Assembly (NCBI GenBank): GCA_964573245.1
Contig: CAZNJA010000002.1
Location: 1-46,714 of the forward strand
Direction of reading: 5' to 3'
From: an uncultured bacterium
Lineage (GTDB): Bacteria > CAIJMQ01
DNA: 46,714 nucleotides
Shown: piece by piece, positions 1,736 through 31,476 of the stretch
Numbering within the stretch: position 1 is the first letter of the stretch
Layout of the letters: the number at the start of each line of letters is the position of its first letter
The notes under the pieces: generated by a model
What the model was told of the DNA's origin: nothing
The model's input: the letters and a program-made list of their open reading frames with translations, nothing else
The model's database searches: none
Program-made: the position numbers and the translations under genes

Positions 1736-4155
1736 TTACTCCAAATTCAGATTACTCAGCCCGCGCATAGCACGCACAATCGATTTATTATCCACATTTC
1801 TTTTTTCTAGGACAGCGATTAAAGCCTGCTCTATTTGGGGGTTCGCTTCTGATACTGTAACAGTCCCAGATTTTACCAATTTCTTATAGGAACTGGCTGT
1901 TAGTAATTGTACATAATGAGTGTATGAATAATCAGGCCAGTTATTAACTACTTTTTGACAGTTTTGCAAAGCATTCGCATAATTACCTAATTGATAATCA
2001 CAGTAAGCCACATAAAGAAGCCCCTCTGATACAACTGAAGAGGGGATGTGTTCTGGCGAGTTAACTATCTTTTCATCAACAATGCTTTTTATAATTTGAA
2101 ACATTTCTTTAGCTTTTTCATTATCACTTTGTGAATCTGCTGTTTTATAAAGCTCCAATTGGGCAAATCAGGATGTCCTGCAAAATTTTTAAGGAAATTA
2201 TCAATATCCATTTTTACTTGATAATCATATTCTCCTAATTTTACAAGAGATAACATCATTTCCGACATTGTCAAACCTAGATTTGCCTTTGAGGCATAGG
2301 AGCTTTCGCAATAATTCTGTATTATTTGCTGATAGATATTTTTTGATTCTTCGTATTTGTTTAACCATCCGTATATTTGTGCGATGTTATATAGCGCTTC
2401 CGGTAAATCAGGATTGATAGAAAATCCATCAATAAGTTCATTAATAGCTATCTTGGCTTGGCTATAGTTTTCAGACACCATAAGAGATAAAATATTCATC
2501 CTTAAGGAACTTACTTTTGCTTTGTTAGCGAATGAACTATTAGGATAGTTCTCAAATATTTGCTGATAGACAATTTTTGCTTCGTCAAAGTTATCCGACC
2601 ATTCATATCTTCTTGCCACATTATAAAGTGTTTCCAGAAAATCAGGGTTTTCCGAAAAATTTACTGTCATCTCTCCAATCGCCGTTCTTGCTTCATCCCA
2701 TTGTCCCGTTATAATTAAGTAGCAGATATCATTCCTTGAAACACCAAACAACGCTGGCTGAAACTTATCACTATCAGAATACTTTTGTACTATCTTTTGA
2801 TAAACGCAACTTGCATCTTCATATCTATTTGCCCATTCATACCTTCTTGCAACTTCATAAAGAGTCTCTGTTAAATCAATGTTTCCAGAGAAATTGCTGA
2901 CAAGTTCATCAACAGCTTTTCTGCTTTCGGTGTACTTATGCGACAAGATAAGAGAAAGAACGTTAGTACTTGAAACACCCAATAATGATTTCTGGGCATA
3001 TGAACTATTAGGGTAATACTGTATCACTTGCTGATAAAACTTATTCGCATCTTCATATTTACGCGCCCAGCTGTATCTCTCCGCAATCCAGTAAAGAGTC
3101 GCTGGGAAATCAGGGTGTTCATAGAAAGTTGACGTTAATTCAGCAATAGCTTGTTTCGCTTGTTCATATTCTCCAGATACAATAAGAGAGAGAATATTTG
3201 TTTTATAAAAATCTAATTCTGATTTAATTGCATAGGAGCTTTCGGGGTAATTCTGAATTATCTGTTGAAATATATCTCTGGCTAGCTCATATTCATCTGA
3301 CCATCCATACCTTTGACCAATCCAGTAAAGTGTATCAGGTAAATCGGGATGTTCATGGAAATCAGATGTTATTTTGTTTATCTCTGCCTGAGCTGCTTCT
3401 ATCTGTCCAGATATGATAAAAGAATATATATCCATTCTTGAGATACCTAACTGCGCTCTTTCAGCCTCTTTACTCTGGGGATACTGCTGAACTATTTGCT
3501 GAAAGATGTTCTTTGCTTCATCAAACTTATCCGACCATTCATATCTTCGCCCAATCCAGTAAAGAGTATCAGGCAAGTCAGGGTGTCCATTGAAATCTGA
3601 AGTTAATTCAGTAATAGCTTGTTCGACCTGTTCGTATTCTCTGGAGAGAATAAGAGAGTGAATGCTTGCTCTGAAAAAACCTAACTCTGCATTGCTTACA
3701 TCTATATTCATATTGCCGAAATTATTTTGCATTATTTGCTGGTACGAGTTTTTTGCATCTTCAAACCTATCTAACCATTCATAGCTACGTACGATATTGC
3801 AAAGTGTCTCTATTAATTCGGGGTGTTTTGAGAAATTACTGATTAGTGCATCCCTAACCTCTTCCGAGGCCTGGATATTATTCAATTCAATGTATAATGA
3901 TGCCAAATTTCCATAAGCCCTCAATGCATAATCAGTGCTTGAATATTCTTTAATAATAGTTTGATAGACTTGTTCAGCTTCGACATATTGGTGATTTTCA
4001 CGATAGTCTTTTGCCTTCTGTTCAAGAGCATCAGCTTGCTTGTTTGTTATTATCTGCGCAGAAGTATTTAAAACCCAGAAGATGATACCTAAAAATGCGA
4101 TAACACCAAGAATTTTGATGCCTACTTTACCAACCTGCCAAATTAGCTTAACCAT
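1736..4155 (-). pseudogene. Membrane-anchored TPR-like repeat protein of about 806 aa, split by a 1-nt frameshift near 2158-2167 (true pseudogene or assembly error)
   Basis: ORFs 2089..4155 and 1736..2158 overlap in different frames. The 78-aa repeat (F..HPDLPDTLYWIG.RYEWSD.FDEAKNIFQQI.Q.YP.S...) continues across the junction. Frame A reads ...FAGHPDLPNWSF and frame B reads LELYKTADSQSDNEKAKEMFQIIKS. Frame B has a TGA at 2170..2168, so the frame switch must lie within 2158-2167. Confidence 0.7.
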
Positions 4156-6045: not shown

Positions 6046-6077
6046 CCCGTTACCTGCCTCGCCGGCAAGGCGGGGAA
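6046..6077 (-). terminator. GC-rich hairpin directly downstream of the isomerase gene (possible terminator; related to the GC-clamp hairpin class)
   Basis: Plus strand: CCCCG-TTA-CCTGCC-TCGCC-GGCAAGG-CGGGG. On the transcribed minus strand it is followed by TTTGG, a weak U-tract. Confidence 0.35.
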
Positions 6078-16541: not shown

Positions 16542-16553
16542 TATTTCCCTCAT

Positions 16554-17609
16554 TTATATTTTCTTGGGTAAACTTTTTAAATACCCTTCAATCTGCGGTA
16601 ATAATAAAGGCAACTGCTTATTAATAACCAAGCCAAATATTACTGCTATTAAAACGATTATAAGTATAAAAGGAATTAAAACTATTAAGTATTCAGCGGA
16701 ACTCGTTCGCAAATGTTTTTCGGATATGCGGTTTGTGCGGATACGGTAATAAAGAGACGCAATAGCTATATTCGCAAGAGGTATGGTAACAAGAAGTCCT
16801 ATACCTAAAAATAATATTCCTAATAGCGTGCATACTATCTGAACCGATAAGATTCTCCACTTGTAGCCCTTGGTAATATCGTAACTTGCTTTCATCCCTT
16901 CCCAAGGTCCCTTGTTTTCATCAAAAATGAAGAAGTAGGTAAGAAGATATGCAAAGGTAAGATAGAATCCCCAAATTCCAAAAGAAACAAGACTTGCAAG
17001 AGCAGTTAATAAAACTATTAATAAATAACCTCCGAAAGCATGCCAGAGATATTGTCCCCTAAAACCTTCAAAAATCGAGCCGACATTAACCGTTTCTTTA
17101 CGGGCTATTTTTAAAGAATATGCCGACCATCCTAAAGTTAAAGCGGCAACAATAAGATACCAGATAAAATTTGATACTAAACTGCTTATGATGTTGACTG
17201 GAAGATTCCGAATAATCCCCATTAAAAGCATAGACCCCGCCATAGCCACTATTGCCGTCATAAAAATAGCGCCTATAATCGACCATATTCCTTTGGCAAG
17301 CATTGCGCGCCACGCGTCAGCAATAACTTGGTCGGTAAGTATCGATTTGTCGTCGCTAAGAAAATCGGACAAATCTTTCGGCGCAGGAACTTGTGTTTCG
17401 GCAGTTTCCTGCTTTTTTAATGGGGGGACATTTCCCTTAAATAAGGATTGTAATTCCGGAATTGATTTTATAACTACCCACTCGCTTTTGTCTTGCACCC
17501 AAACGAAATCTTCGTCCAGAACTCTTTTCTCCTGAACCCATTTGCTCAATGTTTCCGAATCAACCGGTCCGTAAATAGCGCCTTCTTTTGTTTTTATTTG
17601 CCAACCCAT
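16554..17609 (-). CDS. GYF_2 (DUF4339)-domain integral membrane protein with a DUF975-like polytopic C-terminal region
   Basis: MGWQIKTKEGAIYGPVDSETLSKWVQEKRVLDEDFVWVQDKSEWVVIKSIPEL matches the bacterial GYF-2 pattern, followed by about 6 TM segments. ATG 17609 is preceded by AAGGAGAG. The track's 37-codon extension lacks an RBS. Confidence 0.65.
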   Translation of the reverse strand: MGWQIKTKEGAIYGPVDSETLSKWVQEKRVLDEDFVWVQDKSEWVVIKSIPELQSLFKGNVPPLKKQETAETQVPAPKDLSDFLSDDKSILTDQVIADAWRAMLAKGIWSIIGAIFMTAIVAMAGSMLLMGIIRNLPVNIISSLVSNFIWYLIVAALTLGWSAYSLKIARKETVNVGSIFEGFRGQYLWHAFGGYLLIVLLTALASLVSFGIWGFYLTFAYLLTYFFIFDENKGPWEGMKASYDITKGYKWRILSVQIVCTLLGILFLGIGLLVTIPLANIAIASLYYRIRTNRISEKHLRTSSAEYLIVLIPFILIIVLIAVIFGLVINKQLPLLLPQIEGYLKSLPKKI

Positions 17610-17728
17610 AGCTCTCTCCTTATTTCGTTTAGTAAATTCTATACCAAATTCTATGAAATTTCTATTGATGTTATAATAATACATCCCCATACTAAATATA
17701 TTGGTGTAGGGATAAACCAATTTAAAAA

Positions 17729-19270
17729 TTGAAGAACAATATCGTTCCTGTCGTTTTATCGGTGTCCTCTGCCACGCTTTTGACCTTTTCTTTTCATCCT
17801 TTCAACCTTTCATTTTTGGCGTGGATAGCGTTGGTCCCTTTGTTCTGCATTCCCCAAAAAATATCGCCTAAAAAAATATTTATCCTTTATTATTCTGCCG
17901 GGATTATTTTCTGGTTATCTCATATTTGGTGGCTGATTTATGTAACTCCTTTAGGTTATGTTCTTTTGTCTTTTTATCTTGCCCTATTTTTCGGGCTTTT
18001 GGGATTACTTATTAAATTTTCGAGAGAAAAGACAGGTTATCCTCTCTTGTTTCTCGCCCCGCCTATTTGGGTTATGCTCGAGTTTGCAAGAACTTATATG
18101 TTAATAAGCTTTCCCTGGTCTTTGCTGGGTTATTCGCAATGGCACAATACCGCGCTTATACAAATCTCTTCCATAACAGGTGTTTACGGCGTTTCTTTTT
18201 TGATTGTTATGTTCAATGCGGCAGCATCCGATTTGGTTCTGTTAAAAACAAAAAAGCACTTTCGAAATCTTTTATTATCTTTTCTGACAATAATAAATGT
18301 TATCGTATGGGGCTGGCATGCAATTCCTTTAGAGCAAGAAGGGTACGCCTGCCAGAAAATAAAAATTTCTGTGATTCAAGGAAACATTCCGCAGAACATC
18401 AAATGGGACGAAGAATATTCGAAAGAAATTATAAATACTTATGCGGAGCTAAGCATTTACGCAGGGACAGACCATGATGTTTCTTTAATCGTTTGGCCCG
18501 AAACTTCATATCCGGATTATATTAGCGTTGAAAGCGAATTGTTCCAAAAAGTGCGCAATTTGACTTATTATCTAGACACGCATTTGTTGTTTGGCGCGGT
18601 TACAAGCCAAAATAACAGAGATTACAACTCTGCTTTGCTACTATTATCTCCCGAGGCAGAGATAGAGCAAGTTTATAATAAGTTGCGTCTTGTCCAGTTT
18701 GCCGAATATCTTCCCCTTAAAAAACTTTTATTTTTTTTAAGCGACATTTTCCCGCAAATAGGCGATTTTAGCAAAGGCACGGAATACACTATATTCAATA
18801 TCAAAAATCAAATATCAAATATCAAATATAACTTCGCAACATTGATTTGTTTCGAGGATTTGTTTCCGGATTTGGCAAGGGACTTTACCAATAACGGAGC
18901 ACAGTTTTTAGTCAATATCACTAACGACGCGCACTTTAAAGAATCCCCTGCTTTATGGCAACATTTTGCTCATTCAATTTTCAGAGCCGTAGAAAACAGA
19001 AGACCAATAGTAAGAGCGGCAAACAACGGTATAAGCGCGTTTATAAATTCTTACGGAAAACCGATTGAAATATTAACAGACGCCAACGGCAAAGCACGCG
19101 GAGCACGAGGGTACGCAACCGCGCAAATTAGCCCTTCCAACACTAAAACTTTTTATACCCGTTTCGGAGATTTATTCATTTACATCAACTTGCTTTACCT
19201 GTTTGCTTTATCTATTTATCCTATCCGACAACAAAGAAAAAAAGGAAAACAGGGAGTAAAGAAATTATAA
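17729..19270 (+). CDS. lnt: Apolipoprotein N-acyltransferase
   Basis: 513 aa with an N-terminal polytopic domain and a CN-hydrolase domain. Catalytic-triad contexts: IVWPETSYP, YNKLRLVQFAEYLP, TLICFEDLFP. TTG start. Confidence 0.88.
   Translation: MKNNIVPVVLSVSSATLLTFSFHPFNLSFLAWIALVPLFCIPQKISPKKIFILYYSAGIIFWLSHIWWLIYVTPLGYVLLSFYLALFFGLLGLLIKFSREKTGYPLLFLAPPIWVMLEFARTYMLISFPWSLLGYSQWHNTALIQISSITGVYGVSFLIVMFNAAASDLVLLKTKKHFRNLLLSFLTIINVIVWGWHAIPLEQEGYACQKIKISVIQGNIPQNIKWDEEYSKEIINTYAELSIYAGTDHDVSLIVWPETSYPDYISVESELFQKVRNLTYYLDTHLLFGAVTSQNNRDYNSALLLLSPEAEIEQVYNKLRLVQFAEYLPLKKLLFFLSDIFPQIGDFSKGTEYTIFNIKNQISNIKYNFATLICFEDLFPDLARDFTNNGAQFLVNITNDAHFKESPALWQHFAHSIFRAVENRRPIVRAANNGISAFINSYGKPIEILTDANGKARGARGYATAQISPSNTKTFYTRFGDLFIYINLLYLFALSIYPIRQQRKKGKQGVKKL
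18795..18830 (+). repeat. Heptanucleotide tandem array (TCAATA TCAAAAA TCAAATA x3) inside the lnt CDS
   Basis: Direct reading. It encodes FNIKNQISNIKYN just upstream of the catalytic-Cys strand. The 19-mer AATATCAAAAATCAAATAT (18797-18815) is identical to 27836-27854. Confidence 0.85.
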
Positions 19271-19315
19271 ATTGTCTATGTTAAAATAGGCATAAATCAA
19301 ACATAACTATTCAAT

Positions 19316-20536
19316 ATGGATACAAATCTTGTTCTCCTCCTCAGCAGTTTTCTTATAGGGCTATATGTGGCATGGAATATTGGTGCAAACGATGCGGCAA
19401 ATTCCATGGGCTCTTCTGTAGGAGCAAAAGCCATCACCTTCAAACAGGCAATATTTATAGCGTCCATCCTTACTTTCGTTGGAGCTACATTCATAGGTTC
19501 ACATGTTACTGACACGGTTAGAAAAGGAATTGTAGACCCTGCTTTCATAAAAAATCCCGAGGTGGCAATTATTGGATTCATATCTGCACTTCTTGCTTCT
19601 GGATTATGGATTACTTTTGCTACTTGGAAATCTCTGCCCATATCAACCACTCATTCCATTATCGGTTCGCTGATAGGTTTTGGTCTTATTTACGGAGGCA
19701 TAGACATGGTCAACTGGCTAAAGGTGGGGGAGATTACACTTTCATGGATAACTTCTCCTATATTTGCGGGATTGCTTGCTTTTATAATTTTTAAGTTTAT
19801 AGTGAAATTCATTTTAAAATCAAAGGATAGAAGAAAGGCAATCGCAGTAGCTTCTCCACTCTTCATAATTGTTACAGTTTCTATCATATTTTTTTCCCTC
19901 ATGTTTAAAACCAAATTAGGCAGTTCACTACAGGGAGAGAAATTACTAATTGCTATATTCATAGCAATAGCAACTATGATTTTATTATGGTTATGGAATA
20001 GGCAACTTACGGTAAAAGTCGGAAGAGTAGAGCGTATTTTCAGAAGACTTCAAATAATGACAGCTGCTTATATGGCTTTATCAATCGGCTCCAACGATGT
20101 AGCGAATGCTGTCGGTCCTGTGGCCGCCATATATTCCATAATAAAGACCGGAGAAATGGGTTCCCAAGTAGCTGTGCCTATATGGCTTTTGGCTTTCGGG
20201 GGAATAGGTATTGCGCTTGGTATCAGCACCTGGGGTTACAAAGTAATACAAACGATAGGGCACAAAATTACAAAACTAAGCAATACCCGGGGATTTACCC
20301 TGGAATTTTCAGCGGCTACTTCAGTATTAATTGCATCAAAACTTGGTATGCCTGTATCTACCACGCATGCGATAGTCGGCGCGGTTGTTGGTATCGGGCT
20401 TGCAAAAGGGTTAGATGCAATAGATTTGGGAGTAGTAAAGAAAATAATCTATTCTTGGTTTCTTACGGTTCCGGTGACCGCTATATTGACTATTCCCGTA
20501 TATTTATGTTTAATGAAATTATTTAACCCCGTTTAG
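19316..20536 (+). CDS. Inorganic phosphate transporter, PiT family
   Basis: 406 aa, polytopic. Duplicated GANDAANSMG / GSNDVANAVGP signature motifs. Confidence 0.92.
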   Translation: MDTNLVLLLSSFLIGLYVAWNIGANDAANSMGSSVGAKAITFKQAIFIASILTFVGATFIGSHVTDTVRKGIVDPAFIKNPEVAIIGFISALLASGLWITFATWKSLPISTTHSIIGSLIGFGLIYGGIDMVNWLKVGEITLSWITSPIFAGLLAFIIFKFIVKFILKSKDRRKAIAVASPLFIIVTVSIIFFSLMFKTKLGSSLQGEKLLIAIFIAIATMILLWLWNRQLTVKVGRVERIFRRLQIMTAAYMALSIGSNDVANAVGPVAAIYSIIKTGEMGSQVAVPIWLLAFGGIGIALGISTWGYKVIQTIGHKITKLSNTRGFTLEFSAATSVLIASKLGMPVSTTHAIVGAVVGIGLAKGLDAIDLGVVKKIIYSWFLTVPVTAILTIPVYLCLMKLFNPV

Positions 20537-20603
20537 AGATTAAAAAGAAAGGTTATGTTATATATAAATTTACTAAGAATAAATAAGAAGTTTTTATATA
20601 TCA

Positions 20604-20652
20604 ACCCCGTGTTTACGCTCCGACGTAACGTCGGAGCTATCTCTAACGGGGT
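20604..20652. repeat. Nested GC-rich palindromic element (outer ACCCCGT/ACGGGGT, inner GCTCCGACGT-A-ACGTCGGAGC)
   Basis: Direct reading. The inner 21-nt palindrome is shared with the copy inside folC (22737-22757). It ends 4 nt before the AGGAGG RBS of the DUF47 gene. Confidence 0.85.
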
Positions 20653-20671
20653 AAATAGGAGGTGATATTAT

Positions 20672-21343
20672 ATGCCGCGTATACCTATAGTGGGAGCATT
20701 GAGAGTTTCACCTTTTGATAAACTCTTGGAGCATGCTAAAAAGACAAAAGAAGGCATGGCAGTTTTAAAAGATTGCATAACAACTTATTGCGAAGGAGAT
20801 TACGAAAAAAGCGAAAAGTTAAGCCAAAAAGTTGCCGAACTGGAACATGAAGCAGACCTTATAAAAGGCAACATCACGGCACACCTGCCAAAAGAAATTC
20901 TTCTTTCGGTGGACGTAGGCGTATTCCTGCGACTCTTAAACGAGCAGGATTCAATATTGGATTTTGCGGAAAACGCCGTTGTATGGATGCATTTCCGCCA
21001 AACAAAAGTGCCTGCGGAAATTAAAGGCGACCTATTGAGCCATCTTTATAAAGTTATAGAATGCATTGAATCGTTTGAAAAAGTGATAATACACGTGAAA
21101 GAGCTTATTTCCTTTACCGGTTCAGACAAACTCCGCGACCAGATAAAAGAAATCATCAAAGAAGTCCACCTAAAAGAATGGGAAGATGACCAGATAGGAA
21201 AAGTTTTCGCAAAAAAGGCATTCAATCTTCCTGTTGACCCTTTATCAGTATATCATCTGCTAAAATTGGGCAACCTCATCGGACAAATCGCCAAACACGC
21301 CGAAAACGCCGCCGATAGAGTAAGAACGATGATAGCGAGGTAG
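20672..21343 (+). CDS. DUF47 / TIGR00153 family protein (PhoU-like partner of PiT transporters)
   Basis: 223 aa, helical. F..L..HA.........L.......GD......L...V..LE.EAD..K is typical of DUF47. Strong AGGAGGTG RBS. Adjacent to the PiT gene. Confidence 0.8.
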   Translation: MPRIPIVGALRVSPFDKLLEHAKKTKEGMAVLKDCITTYCEGDYEKSEKLSQKVAELEHEADLIKGNITAHLPKEILLSVDVGVFLRLLNEQDSILDFAENAVVWMHFRQTKVPAEIKGDLLSHLYKVIECIESFEKVIIHVKELISFTGSDKLRDQIKEIIKEVHLKEWEDDQIGKVFAKKAFNLPVDPLSVYHLLKLGNLIGQIAKHAENAADRVRTMIAR

Positions 21344-21344
21344 T

Positions 21345-21398
21345 AACTCGCAACTACAGAAAACGGTTATCGGTTTTCGGTTATCGGTGTTCGTTAAA
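21345..21398. repeat. Heptanucleotide direct array (AACTCGC AACTACA ... CGGTTAT CGGTTTT CGGTTAT CGGTGTT CGTTAAA)
   Basis: Direct reading. It fills the convergent spacer between the DUF47 gene and the orphan gene and overlaps the orphan gene's stop codon (21394-21396). Confidence 0.8.
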
Positions 21399-22038
21399 AT
21401 TTTGCTTGCTGTATAGAATTTTTTAATTCTTCATCCATCTTAATTAATGCATTTGGATTCTCATACAAGTAATTTTTAAACCTATCACTGTAAAAAACCA
21501 CAGCTTGCAGTTTCTCCCACTTAGGGGGCTTCTCACCTTGAAATCTACTATGAAACATTTCATATGTTGCATCATCAAAATTAGAATGGTGAGTTCCCCA
21601 TGCATCCGTAAGAAGAAAAACAATATTCAAACAATCTTTATTTAATTTTAGTTGTTTGTAAGCTTCCCCGATTTTATCTATGATTGTTTTCAAAGTTGAA
21701 AATTCTGAGGGAATTTCATTAATTAAAGCTTCTTCTTCTGGTAAATGATTAATATCCACTTTCCTAGTGAAAGGTGGGTTATTCAGTATCTTTTGTCTCT
21801 GGGTGAAATAGATTGTCTTTACTTCAGCACTATATGTCTTGTTTTTGTATTCAAAAACTATGTCATGAGAACACTCCATACATTTTATTTCTAAATTTTC
21901 CAAGTGGCTTAACATCTTGGCTATAACAAGCTGATTAATATAATCTTGTTTTTGTTTTTCGTTATTTGCAATTTTCTTTTTCACCTTATCAAAACCAGAG
22001 GTGTTACTTAAACAATTAAAAGCATCCAAATTTTCCAT
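21394..22038 (-). CDS. Hypothetical protein; possible PD-(D/E)xK nuclease-fold orphan
   Basis: 214 aa with no family I can name. The segment ...SHDIVFEYKNKTYSAEVKTI... fits D-x(n)-E-x-K spacing on predicted beta strands. Two 60-nt samples I counted gave 22% and 32% GC, against 37% in a folC sample. No SD sequence upstream. Confidence 0.45.
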   Translation of the reverse strand: MENLDAFNCLSNTSGFDKVKKKIANNEKQKQDYINQLVIAKMLSHLENLEIKCMECSHDIVFEYKNKTYSAEVKTIYFTQRQKILNNPPFTRKVDINHLPEEEALINEIPSEFSTLKTIIDKIGEAYKQLKLNKDCLNIVFLLTDAWGTHHSNFDDATYEMFHSRFQGEKPPKWEKLQAVVFYSDRFKNYLYENPNALIKMDEELKNSIQQAKF

Positions 22039-22059
22039 TTTGATTTTTAATTGGTTTTA

Positions 22060-23469
22060 TTATTCCTGTTTCTTCTTCAATAGTATACTTCTAGCCTCTC
22101 CTACCAAATACAAAGAGCCGCAGACAAGGATAATATCATTACTCCCTTTATTTTTCTTAAGTTTTTTTATGGTTGATGAAAGATTCTTGCTTGTTGTTAT
22201 GTTTGCATTGTAAGTTTCCCCATCTTTCTTCAGTTCCTCCAAAGAAACAGCTCTTTCGGTATTGGGTTTAGCTAAAATTATCTCATTTGCCAGGGGGAAA
22301 ATTTCTCGCATGATTTCCTCTCTGTCTTTATCTTTAAGTATTCCGAAAAGAATAGTAATTTTTTTATCTTTTTTTAATTTCAAGATTTCTTCTCTCAACA
22401 TCCCTGCCGCCTGCGGATTATGCGCTCCGTCGAGAATAAATATGGGGGGTTTTTTTCCAACACCAAAATTTTCCTGCCCGCCAAGATTTGGCAGGCGGGG
22501 GTGTGGGGACAGGCCTATGACCTCCAGTCTTCCTGACCAGGTAGTTTTCTGCAAGCCTTTATATATATGTTCTTTTTTAATTTTGAATTTTTCGGATAAT
22601 ATTTCGGATGCGGCAACAGCCAAACTTGCGTTCGTATGCTGCCATTTGCCTTTTAAATTTATTACAACATTCGGATAAGAACCTTTTATACCCTTAATAT
22701 TTAATGTTTGACCCAAGAAATACTCCCCGCCTGCTTGCTCCGACGTTACGTCGGAGCGGGCAGGTTTGTATTTTTTCACGAAAAAATCTTTACCGTATAT
22801 AAAAATAGGCGATTTTTTTTCTTTTGCAAGTTCGTTCAGAGTACCAAGCGCTTCTCCTTCAGCGCCCGTAACCAGAGGAGTGTTTTTCCTTATGATCCCG
22901 CCCTTTTCTTTTGCGATGGACGAAACGGTTTTTCCCAGATAATTCGTATGCTCAAGCCCAATACTCGTTATTACCGAAAGGATTGGTTCGGATACATTCG
23001 TGGCATCAAGCCGTCCGCCAAGACCCACTTCATAAACAGCGGCGTTTATTTTTTCCTTCCTGAAATATAAAAATGAAAGCGCTGTCAACACTTCGAAAAA
23101 AGTCGGTCGCGAATAAGGCGGGCAATCGAAGATTTTTTTGATTTCTTTTTTCAATTCGTCCGTAAGGCAAGCAAAAGCCATCCGCGGTATATCCGTTTTT
23201 TTATCACCTCGAAGTATACTGATTCTTTCTCTTATTGTTATAAGATGCGGAGAAGTGTATAGGCCGATTTTCAATCCTGTTTCTCGCAAGATATGAGCAA
23301 TAAAAGAAGCAACAGAACCCTTGCCATTTGTGCCGGCTACCAGAATGACAGGATACGAAAGATGCGGACTATCAAAATGTTCAAGGAGTTTTCTGATATT
23401 GGAAAGACCTAATTTAATTCCCTGCCCTTCTAAACCATAAAGCCAGTTGAGGGATTGTTTGTAAGTCAT
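22060..23469 (-). CDS. folC: Bifunctional folylpolyglutamate synthase / dihydrofolate synthase
   Basis: 469 aa. Mur-ligase P-loop VAGTNGKGSV, TSPHL, typical N-terminus LNWLY......GIKLGL.N...LL. It contains two GC-rich hairpin segments in-frame. Confidence 0.9.
   Translation of the reverse strand: MTYKQSLNWLYGLEGQGIKLGLSNIRKLLEHFDSPHLSYPVILVAGTNGKGSVASFIAHILRETGLKIGLYTSPHLITIRERISILRGDKKTDIPRMAFACLTDELKKEIKKIFDCPPYSRPTFFEVLTALSFLYFRKEKINAAVYEVGLGGRLDATNVSEPILSVITSIGLEHTNYLGKTVSSIAKEKGGIIRKNTPLVTGAEGEALGTLNELAKEKKSPIFIYGKDFFVKKYKPARSDVTSEQAGGEYFLGQTLNIKGIKGSYPNVVINLKGKWQHTNASLAVAASEILSEKFKIKKEHIYKGLQKTTWSGRLEVIGLSPHPRLPNLGGQENFGVGKKPPIFILDGAHNPQAAGMLREEILKLKKDKKITILFGILKDKDREEIMREIFPLANEIILAKPNTERAVSLEELKKDGETYNANITTSKNLSSTIKKLKKNKGSNDIILVCGSLYLVGEARSILLKKKQE
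22472..22518. repeat. GC-clamp hairpin segment inside folC (CCTGCCCGCC-AAGATTT-GGCAGGCGGGGG plus GTGTGGGGACAGG)
   Basis: Direct reading. CCCGCC/GGCGGG or CCTGCC/GGCAGG can pair. The flanks match those of the 22725-22765 element in the opposite orientation. It encodes ...LSPHPRLPNLGGQEN... Confidence 0.6.
22725..22765. repeat. 41-nt GC-rich palindromic element inside folC, in-frame
   Basis: CCCCGCCTGCTTGCTCCGACGTTACGTCGGAGCGGGCAGGT, 29/41 G+C. It shares 33/41 identity with 29135-29175. It encodes KPARSDVTSEQAGGE. Confidence 0.85.
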
Positions 23470-23481
23470 ATCTATGAAAAT

Positions 23482-23562
23482 GGATACTCGATGCTTGATA
23501 CTAGATTCTAGTTAATAAATCCTCCTGCTTTTACGAGTATCGAGAATCCAGTATCTAGTATC
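23482..23562. repeat. Inverted pair of heptamer arrays: (NGATNCT)x4, 21-nt loop, (GAGTATC GAGAATC CAGTATC TAGTATC)
   Basis: Left arm GGATACT CGATGCT TGATACT AGATTCT at 23482-23509. Right arm at 23535-23562. The 30-nt arms are 22/30 complementary in register. Confidence 0.85.
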
Positions 23563-23570
23563 ATTGTAAG

Positions 23571-24299
23571 TTATTCTTTTTGATTTAAGATTATTTCCCC
23601 TTCTCCTGAGATTTTTCCCTCGTTCAAACTTGCGGAGAAATTCTTCAATATAATTTGATTGTCAAACCAAACAAGGGACATTTCCACACTGTTCATAAGA
23701 ACCGAATATAAAGCCGCTTCCTGAAAAATAGTCATTATTTCAAATGGGCCGTTAGGCAAAAATCCTTTGACATCAAACTGAGCCTCGGCGGGGAGTTTAA
23801 AAGCGCTGTAATCTTTCAGGAAAGGGAAAAAAGAAGATATTTCTTCGAGGAGTACGCCTTCTGCTTTTACATTTACTTGAAAAGGATAAGGCACAACTAA
23901 ATCCATCTCTGCTTGCGCATCAAAAGGAGCAGTGCCCAATTCCCCCTTCAGCGGACCTATATTCAGTTTTTTATCTTTTACGGTAAAACTCCCGTTAAGA
24001 TGATTAATTTCCTTATCCCATTCGTTCAAAAGAATTCTGCCTTCGTTTATATTGCCTTCGGCTTTTAACAAAACTTCTTCAGAAAGTTCGGATTTATAAA
24101 AAAGAAAAAACACGTTGGCTCGCCCATCTAACACTTGGATTCTTGTGTCCAACAAAGGAATTTCAGATAGTGGAATGTCTTCCCACTTTATGCTGAATTG
24201 CCAATTGACATTATTTTCGGAAGGTTGGCATAGAACCAAAGTGTTGGACAATATAAAAAAGCATACAAAGAAGATTATATTTCTAAAGAGATTTTTCAC
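23571..24299 (-). CDS. Hypothetical secreted/periplasmic protein (possibly AsmA/TamB-like fragment)
   Basis: 242 aa with signal peptide MKNLFRNIIFFVCFFILSNTLVLCQPS and a beta-rich sequence. GTG start. The family assignment is tentative. Confidence 0.5.
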   Translation of the reverse strand: MKNLFRNIIFFVCFFILSNTLVLCQPSENNVNWQFSIKWEDIPLSEIPLLDTRIQVLDGRANVFFLFYKSELSEEVLLKAEGNINEGRILLNEWDKEINHLNGSFTVKDKKLNIGPLKGELGTAPFDAQAEMDLVVPYPFQVNVKAEGVLLEEISSFFPFLKDYSAFKLPAEAQFDVKGFLPNGPFEIMTIFQEAALYSVLMNSVEMSLVWFDNQIILKNFSASLNEGKISGEGEIILNQKE

Positions 24300-24306
24300 T
24301 TTAAAA

Positions 24307-24338
24307 GTAAAAAGACCGCCACTTTTTAAATGGAGGCC
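24307..24338 (-). terminator. Rho-independent terminator candidate after clpC
   Basis: The minus strand reads GGCCUCCA-UUUAAAAAG-UGGCGGUC followed by UUUUUAC. The stem has 7 of 8 pairs including one G-U. It starts 10 nt after the clpC stop. Confidence 0.5.
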
Positions 24339-24347
24339 ACTTGTTGG

Positions 24348-26915
24348 TTATGTAGTCATTAACGGTTTTTTACCATGCCCCCGCCCAAGAGAACGAGTGC
24401 GTCCTTGCATGTTAGCTTTGCTGTGATATTGCCCAGATAAACGAGCAGTTTTCTTCGAAAAACTCCTGCTTACAAATCTCAATTCGTTGTTCTCCACTTT
24501 AATTTCTACAGTGGAGCCTAAAGAAATTTCGCCTTTCAATATCTTTTCAGCAAGCGGGTCTTCTATAAATTTTTGTATCGCCCTTCTTAAAGGCCGCGCG
24601 CCGTAGATTTTGTCATAACCTTTTTCAATCAAAAATTCGTTGACTTTAGGCGTGTGCTTCAAATCCAGTTTATACTCTTTTAGGCGAATTTTTACTTTTT
24701 CAAGCATTATATCTACGATATGTTTCAAATTATCTTTCGTAAGCGAATGAAAAACCACAATTTCATCTACTCTGTTTACAAATTCAGGCTTGAAAGTTTT
24801 CTTTAATTCGCCCATCAGTTTGTCTTTCATTTGTTGATGTTCTGCCACATCGTCGCAAGAAGATTGAAAACCCAAACTTGAACCTTTTGTCAAAGTATCG
24901 CTTCCTATATTGGAAGTCATTATCAAAACCACATTACGGAAATCTACGGTATGGTTTAGACTATCGGTCAACCTCCCATCTTCCATTACTTGTAACAGGA
25001 TATTGAACGCATCAGGATGCGCCTTTTCAATTTCGTCCAATAAGACGACAGAGTAGGGTTTTCTCCTTACTTTCTCCGTCAATTCGCCGCCCTCTTCATA
25101 ACCAACATATCCCGGAGGAGCGCCGACAAGCCGCGAAACCGCAAACTTTTCCATGAATTCGGACATATCAAGCCTTATCAAAGCTTCTTCGTTTCCAAAC
25201 AAAAATTCGGCTAATGCCCTCGCAAGCTCGGTTTTACCTACACCTGTGGGCCCAAGAAAAACAAATACTCCTATAGGACGCATCGGGTCTTTAAGCCCTG
25301 AACGAGAGCGTCTTATGGTTTTTGCCAAAATCTCAATTGCTTCATTTTGCCCGATTACTCTTTTGTGTATTGCTTCTTCCATTTTAAGCAATCTTCCCGT
25401 TTCCTCTTCTTGAAGTTGCTGTATCGGAACCCCTGTCCATTTGGATATGACTTCCGCAATATCCTGAACATCTACTACAACCCTTCTTTTAAGTTCTATT
25501 TGCTCTTTTAAAATTCGCTCTTTGTCTCTAAGTTGCGCGGCTTTTTCAAAGTCCTGTAATCTTACAGCTTCGCTTTTATCTTTTTGAATGCGAGAAAGTT
25601 CTTCTTCCAATTTAGCGTCTATTTTTGACGGGCTCTTTTTGAATAATTTGGCTTTTGAACAGGACTCGTCTATAACATCTATTGCTTTATCGGGTAAAAA
25701 CCTTTCGGATATATAACGTTCCGCAAAAACAGAGGCTGCCCATACAGAATCATCGGGAATAATAACTTTATGGTGACTTTCATATTTTGTTTTCAATCCT
25801 TTTAATATTTCAACGGTCTCTGCAACAGATGGGGGCTGAACCATAATCGGCTGGAATCTTCTTTCCAGCGCAGAGTCTTTCTCTATATATTTCCTGTATT
25901 CGTTAGGTGTTGTGGCGCCGATACACTGCATTTCTCCTCTTGCAAGAGACGGCTTTAATATGTTGGAAGCGTCAATGGCGCCTTCTGCGGCGCCTGCCCC
26001 TACTAAAGTATGTATTTCGTCAATAAATATAATCACATTGGTGTCCTGCCTTATTTCGTTAAGGACTGCCTTGATCCTTTCTTCAAATTGCCCACGATAT
26101 TTCGTCCCTGCCACCATTAACGCCAAATCAAGAGCAATAATCCTTTTTAACATTAAATCTTCGGGGACATTCCTTCGAACGATTTCCTGCGCCAAACCTT
26201 CCACAATTGCCGTTTTGCCCACACCAGCATCTCCGATAAGGACAGGATTATTCTTTTTTCTTCTACATAAAATCTGCAAAATTCTCTCTATCTCTTCCTT
26301 TCTTCCTATAACAGGGTCTAACCTATTTTCCCTTGCCAACTGCGTAATATCTCTTCCAAAAATACCTAAAGCAGAAGTTTTAGATTTTTTCTGCTGTTGA
26401 GATGAACCGAAAGGGCCGCCTCTTCCAGGTTCCTGTCCACTTCCCAAAGGAAAACGAGTATCGTTGGCGGAAGAAACAAACCCACCTTGAATTTTAATAA
26501 CTTCTTCTCTTGCTTTTTCTACACTTATACCTAAATCGCCAAGGATCTGCGCACCAATACCTTCTTTTTCGCGCAAAACGCCAAGAAGCAAATGCTCAGT
26601 ACCGACATAACTATGCCCCAAAGTCCGCGATTCTTCCACCGCCAATTCTAAAACTCTTCTTGCTTTTGGAGTAAAAGATATTTCTCCAAAACTAAGAACA
26701 TTGGAACCTTTGCCCATTATTTCTTCGGTCGCTTCTTTAAGCAAATCCGCCTTCAGGTTCATTTTTTGTAAAACGGCAAGCGCAACGCCGGAGCCTTCCC
26801 TTAAGATTCCCAAAACGATATGTTCCGTGCCTACAAAGTCGTGGCCTAACCTTCTTGCCTCTTCCTTTGCCAAGGTCAAAACTCTTCTTGCTCTTTCTGT
26901 AAATCTATTATACAT
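24348..26915 (-). CDS. clpC: ATP-dependent Clp protease ATP-binding subunit ClpC (class I Hsp100)
   Basis: 855 aa. Duplicated Clp_N repeats; two AAA modules (GDAGVGKTAIVEGLA and GPTGVGKTELARALA); UVR-like middle motif (...FEKAAQLRDKE...). It carries an unusual basic tail of about 35 aa. Confidence 0.92.
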   Translation of the reverse strand: MYNRFTERARRVLTLAKEEARRLGHDFVGTEHIVLGILREGSGVALAVLQKMNLKADLLKEATEEIMGKGSNVLSFGEISFTPKARRVLELAVEESRTLGHSYVGTEHLLLGVLREKEGIGAQILGDLGISVEKAREEVIKIQGGFVSSANDTRFPLGSGQEPGRGGPFGSSQQQKKSKTSALGIFGRDITQLARENRLDPVIGRKEEIERILQILCRRKKNNPVLIGDAGVGKTAIVEGLAQEIVRRNVPEDLMLKRIIALDLALMVAGTKYRGQFEERIKAVLNEIRQDTNVIIFIDEIHTLVGAGAAEGAIDASNILKPSLARGEMQCIGATTPNEYRKYIEKDSALERRFQPIMVQPPSVAETVEILKGLKTKYESHHKVIIPDDSVWAASVFAERYISERFLPDKAIDVIDESCSKAKLFKKSPSKIDAKLEEELSRIQKDKSEAVRLQDFEKAAQLRDKERILKEQIELKRRVVVDVQDIAEVISKWTGVPIQQLQEEETGRLLKMEEAIHKRVIGQNEAIEILAKTIRRSRSGLKDPMRPIGVFVFLGPTGVGKTELARALAEFLFGNEEALIRLDMSEFMEKFAVSRLVGAPPGYVGYEEGGELTEKVRRKPYSVVLLDEIEKAHPDAFNILLQVMEDGRLTDSLNHTVDFRNVVLIMTSNIGSDTLTKGSSLGFQSSCDDVAEHQQMKDKLMGELKKTFKPEFVNRVDEIVVFHSLTKDNLKHIVDIMLEKVKIRLKEYKLDLKHTPKVNEFLIEKGYDKIYGARPLRRAIQKFIEDPLAEKILKGEISLGSTVEIKVENNELRFVSRSFSKKTARLSGQYHSKANMQGRTRSLGRGHGKKPLMTT

Positions 26916-26936
26916 TTTTTAATTTGTTATCCTATT

Positions 26937-27812
26937 TTATAAATACGGAGTTCCGTCCGCATCTACCAATTTTTTAAACACGTCGCGGATTTTATTGGTG
27001 ATATTTCCCACTTTGCCGCTGCCTATAGTCCTGCCATCGACCTTCACAATGGGAATTATTTCCGCCGCGGTGCCGGTAAGAAAACATTCCTGTGCGTTAA
27101 ACAAATTATACCTGGAAATAGTTCCTTCCTTTACTTCGATAGATATTTTTTTTGCAATTTCCATGACAACTCCCCTTGTTATCCCGTCAAGAACACCCAT
27201 ATGCGTGGAGGGGGTTTTTAAAACATCATTCTCGATTATAAAAACATTATCTGCCGTGCATTCGGTTACAAAACCTTCCCGATTTAACATTATCGCCTCT
27301 TTAAAACCGGCATTTTTTGCCTCTATATTCGCCAATACATTATTTAGATAATTCAGGGATTTCACCTGAGGGTCTAAGTTCTGCGAATTGTTTCGTTGGG
27401 TAGGAACCGTAATTATCTCAATACCTCCTCTGCAAAATTTCTCAGGATACAGTTCTATCTTACCTACAATAACAAATATCGTCGCATTTTTACACTTCTC
27501 GGGAGCAAGCCCCAAATCGCCTTCACCTCTTGTTACCACAATTCTTATATAACAGTCCTTTTGACCGTTGATACGCGCTGTTTTTATAGTAGCTTCAATA
27601 AGTTTTTCTTTTGTAAACGGTATATTGAGGCAAATATATTTTGCGGATTTATATAATCTGTCTATATGTTCCCGCAATTTAAATATTCTGCCGTTATACG
27701 TCCTTAATCCTTCAAAAACACCGTCTCCGTAAAGAAGACCGTGGTCATAAACGGAAATTTTTGCTTCTCCTCTTGAGACAAATTCGCCGTTCAAATATAT
27801 TTTCTGGTCCAT
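26937..27812 (-). CDS. ilvE: Branched-chain amino acid aminotransferase (PLP fold type IV)
   Basis: Y.NGEF.....A..SV.DHG.LYGDGVFEG.R.YNG..F.L..H..RL..SA is the class IV signature. ATG 27812 is preceded by AAGGGG; the track's GTG 27818 is less likely. Confidence 0.85.
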   Translation of the reverse strand: MDQKIYLNGEFVSRGEAKISVYDHGLLYGDGVFEGLRTYNGRIFKLREHIDRLYKSAKYICLNIPFTKEKLIEATIKTARINGQKDCYIRIVVTRGEGDLGLAPEKCKNATIFVIVGKIELYPEKFCRGGIEIITVPTQRNNSQNLDPQVKSLNYLNNVLANIEAKNAGFKEAIMLNREGFVTECTADNVFIIENDVLKTPSTHMGVLDGITRGVVMEIAKKISIEVKEGTISRYNLFNAQECFLTGTAAEIIPIVKVDGRTIGSGKVGNITNKIRDVFKKLVDADGTPYL

Positions 27813-27833
27813 CTTCACCCCTTATTTTAAAAT

Positions 27834-28007
27834 TAAATATCAAAAATCAAATATTAAAATTTAAATAGGAAAACCCGCGCTGACAAAGTTCTGTTATTAG
27901 CTTTTTCTGGTATCGAGCATTTAGTATCAAGAATCCAGTTTCTCATTTTGAACTTTAATTTGTCATTTTGCATTTTTACTTTTTAATTTTTACTTTTGCC
28001 TTTAGAT
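27834..28007. repeat. Composite heptamer-periodic spacer: (YAAAWAT)x5, a 41-nt non-periodic core, then 14 consecutive heptamers (GTATCGA GCATTTA GTATCAA GAATCCA GTTTCTC ATTTTGA ... TTTTTAC TTTTGCC TTTAGAT)
   Basis: Direct reading. It occupies nearly all of the 196-202 bp rpiB-ilvE spacer. It shares the words GTATCGAG, TAGTATCAAG and GAATCCAG with the array at 23482-23562. Confidence 0.85.
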
Positions 28008-28014
28008 TATACCT

Positions 28015-28473
28015 CTAACAGCATTTATTTTCTATTTCACTTATTAAATCAACCCTTCTTTGATGCCTTCCGCCGTCGAATGGGGTCGAAAGCCACATAT
28101 CAACAATCTGAATTGCCAGCTCAAGTGAAATGGTTCTCTGTCCAATTGCAAGAACATTCGCGTTATTGTGACCTCTCGCCCATTTTGCCGTGTCATAACT
28201 CCAGCATAAGGAGCAACGAATGCCTTTGATTTTGTTAGCAACAATAGCTTCTCCGTTGCCGGAACCACCGAATACAATGCCGTAATCCGCCTTCCCCTTT
28301 GCAACCGCTTCCGCCGTCGGTCTGACAAAATTCGGATAATCGCACGGCTGGTCCGAATCAGTACCGAAATCTAGCACTTCAATACCCTTTTCAATTAGAT
28401 ATTTCTTAATCGCCTCCTTGTATTTGAATCCGGCATGGTCGCTTCCCAAAGCAACGGAAATATTAGTGTCCAT
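28015..28473 (-). CDS. rpiB: Ribose-5-phosphate isomerase B
   Basis: 152 aa. ...GSDHAGF..K..I..YL...G.EV.D.G...... followed by GI...G.GNGE.I.ANK..GIR. Confidence 0.9.
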   Translation of the reverse strand: MDTNISVALGSDHAGFKYKEAIKKYLIEKGIEVLDFGTDSDQPCDYPNFVRPTAEAVAKGKADYGIVFGGSGNGEAIVANKIKGIRCSLCWSYDTAKWARGHNNANVLAIGQRTISLELAIQIVDMWLSTPFDGGRHQRRVDLISEIENKCC

Positions 28474-28487
28474 TGTAAAATATCCTC

Positions 28488-29117
28488 CTATACATTAATT
28501 ATTCTTTCTATATCCTCTTTTTTTATTTTACCTTCTCTGATTAATTTTGGCGAATTTCCCGTGCAGTCAATTACTGTGGAAGGCATCCCCCAAATTGTTT
28601 GCCCCCCGTCTAAAATCAGGTCGATCTTACCATCAAAATACCCTTTGACTTCTTCTGTGTTTAAAGCATCTTTTTCACCCGAAGTATTTGCGCTTGTCGA
28701 AACCAACGGGCTGTATTCTTTTAATAAAGCAAGCGGCACAAAATGGTCCGGGATTCTAAATCCCAACGCTTCGGTTTGAAAGGGTACATCCAGTCCGATT
28801 TTTTTCTTAAGCACCACCGTTAAAGGTCCCGGACAAAATGTTCTCATTAACTTATATGCAAAATCCGGCAACTTTTCAACATATAAACTCACGCTTTCGA
28901 TGTCCGGAACAAAAACAGACAAAGGTTTGGAAAAATTCCTGCTCTTGATTTTATATATTTTTCTCACCGCCTTCTTAGAAAACAGGTCTCCTGCCAGGCC
29001 GTAGACCGTTTCCGTAGGCAAAGCTACTACTCCGCCGTTTTTCAGGACCGATACGGCTTTTGAAACTACATCCTTCTCCAACTTTTTAGAATCTATTTTT
29101 ATATAATCCATAACCAT
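28488..29117 (-). CDS. tsaC: L-threonylcarbamoyladenylate synthase (YrdC/TsaC domain)
   Basis: 209 aa. G.VVALPTETVYGLA.D......V..I...K.R...KPL and GPLT.V are YrdC-family motifs. Confidence 0.85.
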   Translation of the reverse strand: MVMDYIKIDSKKLEKDVVSKAVSVLKNGGVVALPTETVYGLAGDLFSKKAVRKIYKIKSRNFSKPLSVFVPDIESVSLYVEKLPDFAYKLMRTFCPGPLTVVLKKKIGLDVPFQTEALGFRIPDHFVPLALLKEYSPLVSTSANTSGEKDALNTEEVKGYFDGKIDLILDGGQTIWGMPSTVIDCTGNSPKLIREGKIKKEDIERIINV

Positions 29118-29134
29118 ATTATCTTTTTAAAAAT

Positions 29135-29173
29135 CCCCGCCTGCTTGTCCCAACGTAACGTCGGGATGGGCAG
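29135..29173. repeat. Intergenic copy of the GC-rich palindromic element (prfB-tsaC spacer)
   Basis: CCCCGCCTGCTTGTCCCAACGTAACGTCGGGATGGGCAG. It has the same 13-nt left flank as the folC copy. On the minus strand it is followed by GGGGATTTTTAAAAAG. Confidence 0.85.
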
Positions 29174-29184
29174 ATGTGTAATCA

Positions 29185-30283: not shown

Positions 30284-30341
30284 AGTGCGCTAATTTTAAC
30301 ACAAGGTCTGTATCATTATAAACTCCCCTTTGTTTAGCCGC

Positions 30342-30370: not shown

Positions 30371-30416
30371 ATCGGCTTAAAAATAAAGTCTGCAAGGTAA
30401 AAAAGAGAGGGAATAT

Positions 30417-31475: not shown

Positions 31476-31476
31476 A

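Follow-up and report, generated by a model that had tools for sequence, protein, structure and literature searches.

What is a GC-rich palindrome doing in the reading frame of a housekeeping gene? The question is raised by a 46,714-nt stretch of DNA from an uncultured bacterium (contig CAZNJA010000002.1 of assembly GCA_964573245.1), referred to here at its full length as the window, whose folC gene had been reported by a first-pass annotation to contain a 41-nt palindromic element at positions 22725-22765. Our analysis bears out the plus-strand sequence of that element (CCCCGCCTGCTTGCTCCGACGTTACGTCGGAGCGGGCAGGT; 29/41 G+C), its palindromic character and its location in frame within folC, but the inserted DNA itself measures 39 nt (22726-22764), the outer C and T belonging to folC codons. 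We consider it likely that the palindrome is one copy of a family of GC-rich, hairpin-forming, non-autonomous mobile repeats of 24-39 nt that are selfish and are kept in frame in permissive loops. Insertion has been precise, has left no target-site duplication and has occurred at many unrelated places, among them intergenic DNA, protein-coding genes and, with nested hairpins as the result, loops or arms of other hairpin repeats. The copies in the window, designated A to E, and the gene that hosts two of them are listed below.

22060..23469, minus strand: folC, encoding a bifunctional folylpolyglutamate/dihydrofolate synthase; host of copies A and C; an intact open reading frame (ORF) of 469 aa.
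22726..22764, plus strand: copy A, long form, 39 nt, CCCGCCTGC-TT-GCTCCGACGT-T-ACGTCGGAGC-GGGCAGG; in frame in folC, which lies on the opposite strand.
22473..22499, minus strand: copy C, short form, 27 nt, CCCGCCTGCCAAATCTTGGCGGGCAGG, composed of CCCGCCTGCC-AAATCTT-GGCGGGCAGG; in frame in folC (..RLPNLGGQ..).
22450..22509, minus strand: composite folC insert, 60 nt, SPHPRLPNLGGQENFGVGKK; outer hairpin CCCCACACC...GGTGTTGG (22500-22508 and 22457-22472) with copy C nested in it.
29136..29174, plus strand: copy B, long form, 39 nt; intergenic, between a release-factor gene (stop 29185) and a sua5-like gene (start 29117), both on the minus strand.
20605..20651, plus strand: copy D, the 21-nt core palindrome GCTCCGACGTAACGTCGGAGC (20617-20637) within a different outer hairpin, CCCCGT...ACGGGG.
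6053..6074, minus strand: copy E, short variant, 22 nt, CCCGCCTTGCCGGCGAGGCAGG; intergenic, within a CCCCGT...ACGGGG hairpin (~6047-6095).

Copy A is missing as a clean 39-nt gap from the DNA of L001 (GCA_028715665.1, syntenic with window positions 15449-33294) and L004, the closest relatives for folC, whose FolC proteins are 76-77% identical. Both flanks align base for base in these genomes, and the junction on the gene strand reads TACAAA/CCTGCCCGC...GCAGGCGGG/GAG (slashes here and below mark element boundaries), with nothing duplicated. In an alignment of 23 FolC sequences, the 22 others being 42-82% identical to the window protein, the 13 residues PARSDVTSEQAGG (FolC residues 236-248) are unique to the window protein. 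None of the 22 has residues at this position, so the insert is lineage-specific and the homologous residues in distant orthologues that would have spoken for an ancestral segment are not there. The gap in two relatives and the lack of a counterpart in 22 FolCs together argue for insertion as opposed to ancestral sequence. Reading through copy A, folC translates as KPARSDVTSEQAGGE with no stop codon, as the first-pass annotation had maintained.

The window protein carries Mur_ligase_M and Mur_ligase_C domains and is 469 aa long, compared with 434-437 aa for insert-free FolC relatives. An exact look-up returned no record identical to it. A protein search with the joined peptides that the elements encode also gave no match, the window's FolC included; because the word index is too sparse for peptides of 13 residues, this carries no weight as a sign of absence. 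Its best named relatives are folylpolyglutamate/dihydrofolate synthases from metagenome-assembled genomes of Candidatus Ratteibacteria (57-77% identity), and the host appears, judged by these nearest FolC relatives, to belong to that group. The peptide stretches that span inserted sequence are YKPARSDVTSEQAGGEYF and GLSPHPRLPNLGGQENFGVGK. An AlphaFold2 model built on the 23-sequence alignment (mean predicted local distance difference test score, pLDDT, of 87.7; predicted template modelling score, pTM, of 0.89) contains three stretches of at least 3 residues with pLDDT <50, namely 18-21, 239-250 and 322-335, the latter two of which are the inserts. In this model, built in answer to the structural check suggested earlier, the first insert falls between beta strands 229-235 and 254-259, in a loop of low confidence, and the second lies between strands 316-318 and 343-347. 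The second insert has no counterpart in the sequence of the Thermotoga maritima FolC crystal structure (1o5z); around the first, the alignment with 1o5z is loose and gapped over a variable stretch, with only a short variable turn there. Copy A is therefore predicted to form a 13-residue surface loop, probably disordered, at a beta-hairpin turn of FolC, and the nested element pair a 20-residue loop further along the protein. A codon-level alignment of seven folC genes reveals at least 6 insertion sites among FolC orthologues, and all of the private inserts are in frame and mostly GC-rich palindromes.

Copy A stands out from its surroundings: its GC content is 0.72 in a window whose mean is 0.385 and whose 1-kb values span 0.34-0.43, with 0.35-0.43 in those around the element, and its sense-strand RNA folds with -29.5 kcal/mol (z -5.5). 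The match noticed earlier between its 41-nt span and positions 29135-29175 holds at 33/41 nucleotides with the first 13 nt shared, and it corresponds to copy B, whose stem pairing is retained despite two double changes relative to copy A. The release-factor and sua5-like genes that flank copy B overlap by 4 nt in L001, compared with ~67 extra nt, containing copy B, in the window. The recurrence of the 21-nt inner palindrome at 20617-20637 was likewise recovered. This core, which forms copy D, is 100% complementary as a palindrome and occupies the spacer between genes for a PHO4-type transporter and a PhoU-like protein, a spacer of 135 nt here versus 20-32 nt in L001, L006 and L007; its RNA fold reaches -28.6 kcal/mol (z -5.2). 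The 15-nt core CCGACGTWACGTCGG, with up to 3 mismatches allowed, occurs three times in the window against 0.21 expected, and 0/100 shuffles reached 3. A sliding-window hairpin scan with strict energy thresholds returned 0-4 islands per locus (nulls ~0), with copy A the strongest in the window, and is too insensitive to serve as a census. Rfam at gathering thresholds gave no match in the window.

Copy C, which like copy E escaped the first-pass annotation and which emerged from GC-island and motif scans, occupies a folC site that exists in three states among related genomes. L004 is empty, L001 contains a hairpin alone (CCCCACGCC-AAAACTGC-TGGTGTGGGG), and the window and L130 contain the hairpin plus a unit: a CCCGCCTG...CGGGCAGG element of 27 or 24 nt placed exactly between the 5' stem and the loop of the outer hairpin. 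The outer hairpin is the older element. Its family is also found between genes at L007 15977-16006 and within lnt of L007, and the composite of outer hairpin and nested unit seen in the window folC recurs in lnt of L135.

The related loci, identified by L-numbers, comprise L129 and the folC-syntenic region of nine other assemblies (NCBI, ENA, JGI), giving 218 kb; a FolC-based scan of JGI metagenomes returned 3 loci. A search for the terminal motifs CCCGCCTG and CGGGCAGG, each with at most 1 mismatch and 10-42 nt apart, produced 17 matches in the 218 kb against 0.3 expected from Markov shuffles (maximum 2), and the core motif produced 10 matches against 1.0 expected. These excesses indicate a real family, and the copies lie at non-orthologous genic and intergenic sites, which answers the earlier concern that three copies in one contig might be a coincidence. 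The 17 matches divide into 14 genic and 3 intergenic, the genic figure including overlapping matches and two false positives. Two matches stem from conserved coding sequence of ndk, and some matches overlap each other. The separate copies recovered by this search are distributed as follows.

Window: copies A and C.
L001: one in lnt.
L005: folC, sua5 and a spacer.
L129: three copies.
L130: folC, sua5 and a spacer.
L135: one in lnt.

Copies B and E fall outside the terminus filter, yet are clearly related. The related loci are 83-95% coding, and most copies are intragenic. Three 27-mers that differ by 1-2 bases occupy unrelated sites in three genomes: copy C in the window folC, an intergenic copy in L005 (14354-14380, in the PHO4-PhoU spacer) and a copy in L131 folC that is nested in the 21-nt core palindrome at a different folC site, termed site 1 (GCTCCGA[CCTGCCCGCCAAAGATTGGCAGGCGGG]CGTTACGTCGGAGC). 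The near-identity of these 27-mers at unrelated sites, combined with five pairs of filled and empty sites, argues for mobility. The three copies in L129 lie within 850 nt (6021-6870), in and beside a decayed integrase/rve-type insertion sequence (IS) gene, and one of them encodes ..KKKPARSARQAG..; the rve-type IS is an insertion target and not a parent. Because the family is present in independent assemblies from four sources (NCBI, ENA, JGI and Logan), an assembly artefact was ruled out.

The anatomy of the unit is consistent across these sites. Family members measure 24-39 nt (8-13 residues) and have the ends 5'-CCCGCCTG...CGGGCAGG-3', with the long form containing the inner palindrome GCTCCGACGTWACGTCGGAGC. 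The 5' arm reads CCCG-CCTGCC and the reverse complement of the 3' arm CCTG-CCCGCC; the ends are thus not simple reverse complements, and the two orientations can be distinguished. In seven copies of the long form, 92.9% of the inner-stem cells pair, a value that falls to 27-44% when the partner strand is slid, and two inner-stem positions have changed on both sides (CT..AG to TC..GA). Thirteen of the 16 copies catalogued have a length divisible by three and 10 are free of stop codons in all six frames, a property shared by 51% of random 27-mers at the same GC content and by 2.4% at genomic GC content. Every genic copy that was found keeps the frame and lacks a stop in the frame used, and the genic copies mostly adopt two frames, xRL..GGQ in the forward orientation and PAR..GG in the reverse.

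Exact junctions could be defined for five filled/empty pairs, and none contains a duplication: copy A, copy C, the lnt copy of L001, the nested copy of L131 and a phage site (alpha, below). For the L001 lnt copy a target-site duplication was considered and rejected, since the empty sites of L007 and L006 already contain the 7-bp GATAACC repeat in question. No clear target motif is shared among the flanks of the copies, the 5' flanks including ..CTC, ..ACC, ..ATC, ..GCA, ..TTG and ..AAT, with TC immediately preceding 6/13 copies. An identical nesting junction, cccacacc/element/aaaa, is found in two genes, folC (window and L130) and lnt (L135), and hairpin-only versions exist at both places (folC of L001 and lnt of L007). 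Either hairpin loops are preferred as targets, or the composite moves as a unit. Nesting is also seen in two other outer palindromes, in L131 folC and in phage.

The phage copies were detected by an exact-pattern scan of IMG/VR, which yielded a 27-mer, 25-26/27 identical to copy C, in five contigs of related tailed phages (L136-L140; 53-59% GC). It lies in frame at two sites of a portal-like gene, for example at L140 4995-5021 on the minus strand and L136 4994-5020 on the plus strand.

Site alpha: reverse orientation, encoding SPARQGLAGG; an empty allele is present in L139 (ACATCA/AGGCAC).
Site beta: forward orientation, encoding TRLPSLGGQ; in L136 nested in the loop of another palindrome, ATTGCGAGCGA[...]AGCGAAGCAAT.

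The short form is therefore not confined to one phylum and is carried by phages, and its presence in the portal-like gene suggests one route of spread between hosts. Neither the long form nor the 21-nt core was found in viral contigs, and the plasmid and phage collections of GenBank gave no meaningful match to the element. A looser terminus pattern gave at least 120 matches in viral contigs, one per contig; these were read as chance, with composition unchecked, and were discarded.

How frequently have proteins of these genomes acquired such inserts? A census of 16 orthologous syntenic gene families, which covered 44,799 aligned residues and as many as 10 loci and in which inserts of at least 5 residues present in a minority of genomes were counted, identified 31 lineage-private inserts with a mean GC content of 0.56, compared with 0.38 for control segments of the same genes. 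The GC content is at least 0.5 in 23 of the 31, and 14/31 fold better than 98% of equal-length controls from the same gene, which is an underestimate, since the alignment sometimes cuts through an element. Private inserts occur in FolC, Lnt, Sua5, an FAD oxidase and NDK, with seven insertion sites in Lnt. Among the census loci none was found in ClpB, PHO4, PhoU, isocitrate/isopropylmalate dehydrogenase, release factor, RpiB or class-IV aminotransferase, and the most distant loci, L133 and L134, are without such inserts in the census genes. In L134, many genes (sua5, lnt, ndk and the FAD oxidase gene) are split in a manner that looks like long-read frameshift error and not like biology, and these genes were not used as evidence for disruptive insertion.

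Other hairpin families are likewise both intergenic and in frame within genes: CCCCACACC..GGTGTGGGG, CCCGTTAGAAGT..ACTTCTAACGGG, AACCCCGCCC..GGGCGGGGT and GCACTCC..GGAGTGC. A 66-nt in-frame insert of the CCCGTTAGAAGT...ACTTCTAACGGG family in lnt of L005 (15732-17435) and L135 (15330-15420) has ATTAGT(CC) on both sides, which may represent a target duplication of 6-8 bp and would, in contrast to the main family, make this family resemble a MITE (miniature inverted-repeat transposable element). Further members of this CCCGTTAGAAGT...ACTTCTAACGGG family lie between genes at L007 3044-3114 and, in the window, as the outer hairpin that encloses copy D. The insert FLTPATNSKAGRPSNDTTAGRPSNDTKAGRPAAGSM in L135 lnt holds, in frame, three tandem units with the end GGCGGGCAGGCCC (36 residues; fold -28.9 kcal/mol), so that short tandem arrays inside a gene are another form in which the main family can expand. 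The prfA-sua5 and PhoU-PHO4 spacers of L005 (3656-3842 and 14251-14469) measure ~190-220 nt versus -4 to 32 nt in relatives and consist almost wholly of three or four different GC-rich hairpins, which points to substantial intergenic expansion by the same repeat families.

How might such a unit move, and why is it found in frame? The lack of duplication, the hairpin unit and the apparent preference for hairpin loops as targets lead us to propose, as the most speculative part of this scheme, a single-stranded DNA route. A hairpin-recognizing HUH/tyrosine (Y1) transposase, of the IS200/IS605 kind or the kind associated with repetitive extragenic palindromic sequences (REPs) and known as REP-associated tyrosine transposase (RAYT), would act in trans. 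Gene conversion between copies probably also shuffles variants, although this too is speculative. In a genome that is ~92% coding, selection would spare only those copies that have a length divisible by three, contain no stop in the frame used and reside in permissive loops. The surviving genic copies would be transcribed and translated with their host gene, and the insert in FolC would be a functionless passenger that the protein tolerates.

Several observations weigh against this interpretation. No transposase or other mobilizing gene is present in the window, where the 20 proteins outside the syntenic block were scanned, nor is any such gene linked to the elements in the related loci, and the 5' flanks lack the conserved tetranucleotide that IS200/IS605-type targeting would predict. 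Gene conversion among the copies, and not new insertion, could account for some of the states that are shared or composite. Transcription and translation of the insert are suggested solely by the preserved frame and the lack of stops. The ortholog census sees in-frame inserts only, which places the frequency of disruptive insertion outside its reach, and genome-wide copy number is an extrapolation from 218 kb. Among GTDB species representatives the long-form pattern matched one genome (L129), the genome of the window evidently not being included, and two matches to a 24-nt variant in phage contigs of 66-67% GC could be due to chance. A more far-reaching version of the mobile-repeat interpretation, which we regard as doubtful, holds that these sequences are more than one further REP family and represent a widespread, so far undescribed class of the smallest known mobile DNA units, with a 27-nt hairpin as the entire unit that transposes, which prefer coding DNA and the single-stranded loops of other hairpins as targets, are carried by phages between distant hosts and move by a mechanism other than that of RAYT/GTAG elements, with lengths divisible by three and freedom from stops being adaptations to gene-dense genomes.

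Hairpins of this type might alternatively be functional signals retained by the host, such as terminators or attenuators, mRNA-stabilizing stem-loops or protein-binding sites, with the folC copy regulating expression or blocking antisense transcription. REPs are thought to act as such signals in other bacteria (PMC3733652). Copy A and its flank on the plus strand (22729-22775, antisense to folC) score as an intrinsic terminator with a 17-bp stem, 11 G-C pairs and the tail TTGTATTTTT, and could block antisense transcription; next to copy B, which lies between two genes of the same direction, GGGGATTTTTAAAA follows on the transcribed minus strand. However, the T-run after copy A consists of Lys and Tyr codons of folC, the 11-kb region has 6 terminator-like sites where shuffles have 11.3, and the terminator resemblance of copy A is probably a by-product of placing a GC-rich hairpin among A/T-rich codons. 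Most copies are in coding sequence, in both orientations and at non-conserved positions, and their sites are empty in close relatives, so that no conserved regulatory need is apparent. We judge host-retained signals to be an unlikely explanation. GC-rich 'byp' elements in coding regions of some AT-rich yeast mitochondrial genomes do not reach the protein, and by analogy the inserts might be present in DNA alone, being cut from the mRNA or bypassed by the ribosome. Such a process would suit an AT-rich genome whose GC-rich hairpins fold into stable structures in the mRNA (-29.5 kcal/mol for copy A). It would not, however, require frame preservation and the absence of stops in all genic copies, lengths divisible by three in 13/16 copies or two dominant frames, though the census is biased toward intact ORFs. 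Removal or bypass of the inserts is accordingly a very improbable account of the family.

Could the inserts instead be adaptive, lineage-specific protein loops selected in FolC and other hosts, with the palindromy of the DNA incidental? The preferred frames do give recurrent peptides (..GGQ and PAR..GG), and one beta-hairpin turn of FolC has received inserts several times over. Nevertheless, the same DNA units are found between genes and in unrelated proteins (FolC, Lnt, Sua5, FAD oxidase, NDK and the phage portal-like protein), the modelled loops are of very low confidence, and conservation tracks DNA pairing as opposed to peptide sequence, which leaves selection for the loops themselves scarcely probable. 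Alternatively, local mutation by template switching or fold-back synthesis might make GC-rich palindromes de novo at fragile sites, with their similarity convergent, and different palindromes have indeed struck the same sites repeatedly (FolC sites 1, 2/3, 5 and 6, and lnt column 477). Convergence cannot generate matches of 25-27/27 nt at unrelated loci, in different genomes and in phage, and chance would supply 0.3 terminus pairs where 17 were seen; we therefore find de novo origin barely credible. Two further candidates were dismissed outright: a CRISPR (clustered regularly interspaced short palindromic repeat) repeat or array, for which the regular spacing is lacking, and an intein or intron, in view of a length far below what these require and of the preserved frame. 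Taking this evidence together, we continue to favor a family of mobile hairpin repeats.

How does this family relate to known elements? Rickettsia palindromic elements (RPEs), to which the first-pass annotation likened the folC insert, are palindromic, occur between genes and in frame in many unrelated housekeeping genes at positions compatible with the protein fold, and coexist as several families (PMC10969869; PMC3733652). As first reported they are ~150 bp and were described from Rickettsia (PMC10969869), and the short R. conorii families RPE-4 and RPE-6 end in a CGTC tag (PMC3733652). The present elements resemble RPEs in being multi-copy palindromic repeats, genic and intergenic, that colonize unrelated housekeeping ORFs in frame at fold-compatible positions. 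Unlike RPEs, which span roughly 100-150 bp and encode a conserved peptide of some tens of residues, the units described here measure 24-39 nt (8-13 residues), are hosted by Candidatus Ratteibacteria, a different phylum, and by phage, have no CGTC end tag and are prominently nested. The comparison thus fits the behavior of the elements and does not establish RPE membership; the separation from RPEs is drawn from their published description, from the host and from the Rfam scan, which gave no match.

REPs are imperfect palindromes of 20-40 nt that form multiple families per genome and fall into GTAG and CGTC superfamilies (Di Nocera et al. 2013, PMC3733652), and REPs within ORFs, to which they add residues, have been recorded in several species, with Opitutus terrae and R. 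conorii as prominent cases (PMC3733652). CGTC families have a stem of 8-9 bp starting with A-T pairs, a loop of 4-5 nt and a CCA tail; no dedicated transposase is known for them, and Y1-type movement is a proposal for the GTAG REPs and an open matter for the CGTC REPs (PMC3733652). The elements in the window likewise are imperfect palindromes of 20-40 nt present in multiple copies, some of them in ORFs. They differ from REPs in having no unpaired terminal GTAG/CTAC or CGTC tag (16 copies and their flanks inspected), no CCA tail and other stem and loop dimensions. Whereas REPs are mainly extragenic and located near ORF 3' ends, most copies here are genic; they are nested instead of arranged as head-to-head dimers, and they form GC-rich islands in a 38% GC genome. 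The core does contain CGTC, but this tetranucleotide is paired and internal and not a terminal tag, and membership among CGTC REPs was rejected on these grounds.

The usual length range of MITEs is ~50-500 bp. These elements are non-autonomous, have inverted ends and are occasionally fused in frame to host ORFs (PMC10969869), and the present family shares these traits; it differs in its length of 24-39 nt, in the lack of target-site duplication in five filled/empty pairs and in that no parent IS with matching ends was seen. IS200/IS605-type (palindrome-associated transposable element, PATE-like) elements insert without duplication beside a conserved 4-5 nt target; duplication is absent here also, and the 5' flanks vary, although TC precedes 6/13 copies. 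Most GC clusters of yeast mitochondria are intergenic. They are short mobile repeats, rich in GC and able to form hairpins, which move and merge within a compact, AT-rich genome (PMC4478555), and hairpin elements are found in other organelle genomes too, such as the RHE of sponges (PMC2800124). Substitutions in GC clusters concentrate in loops while the stem is conserved, and GC42 has an AG target dinucleotide on both sides (PMC4478555). The family described here is similarly GC-rich within an AT-rich genome (0.72 versus 0.385) with a conserved stem (92.9% pairing), and differs in residing in a bacterial chromosome and in phage as opposed to an organelle and in having no flanking AG repeat. 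It behaves like RPEs, REPs and GC clusters and is a member of none of these groups. No description of this family, of its motif or of repeats in Ratteibacteria was found in the limited collection of literature searched, in agreement with the first-pass annotation.

What distinguishes the family is its very small unit, the density of intragenic copies, its nested architecture and its presence in a phage gene. If our interpretation is correct, Candidatus Ratteibacteria take their place beside Rickettsia, Opitutus and yeast mitochondria, where protein loops are altered time and again by selfish hairpin DNA. Inserts are dense here, with two in one FolC, at least 6 sites among FolC orthologues and seven in Lnt. 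The filled/empty pairs and nested states constitute natural experiments on how tag-less REP-like repeats move and on how much loop insertion proteins tolerate. Such inserts also make proteins longer, give metagenome proteins spurious motifs that pass for 'lineage-specific' ones, and can lead astray annotation and phylogeny when these rely on alignments of uncultivated lineages.

The window is otherwise ordinary chromosome, with genes for a TPR protein, an Mg-chelatase-like ATPase, sugar kinases, Lpt proteins, RecG and others. Within its PhoH-like gene (31969-32001, plus strand) lies a private insert of 11 residues, TNPVGNSLPYG, with 55% GC and a CCCGT..ACGGG hairpin; most orthologues lack this insert, which probably represents another hairpin family, and L130 has a different one at that place. 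Short AT-rich repeats of the ATATCAAA type are found in lnt (18779-18842) and between genes (27818-27867), those in lnt occupying a variable position that is filled by GC-rich hairpin inserts in relatives. A 32-nt AT-rich inverted pair (23483-23514 and 27911-27942; 78% complementary) is intergenic, upstream of folC and of the class-IV aminotransferase gene and could be a shared operator or another repeat. Seven 234-nt tandem units at 2323-3837, within the gene for a 688-aa TPR-repeat protein (2089..4155, minus strand), are ordinary protein repeats.

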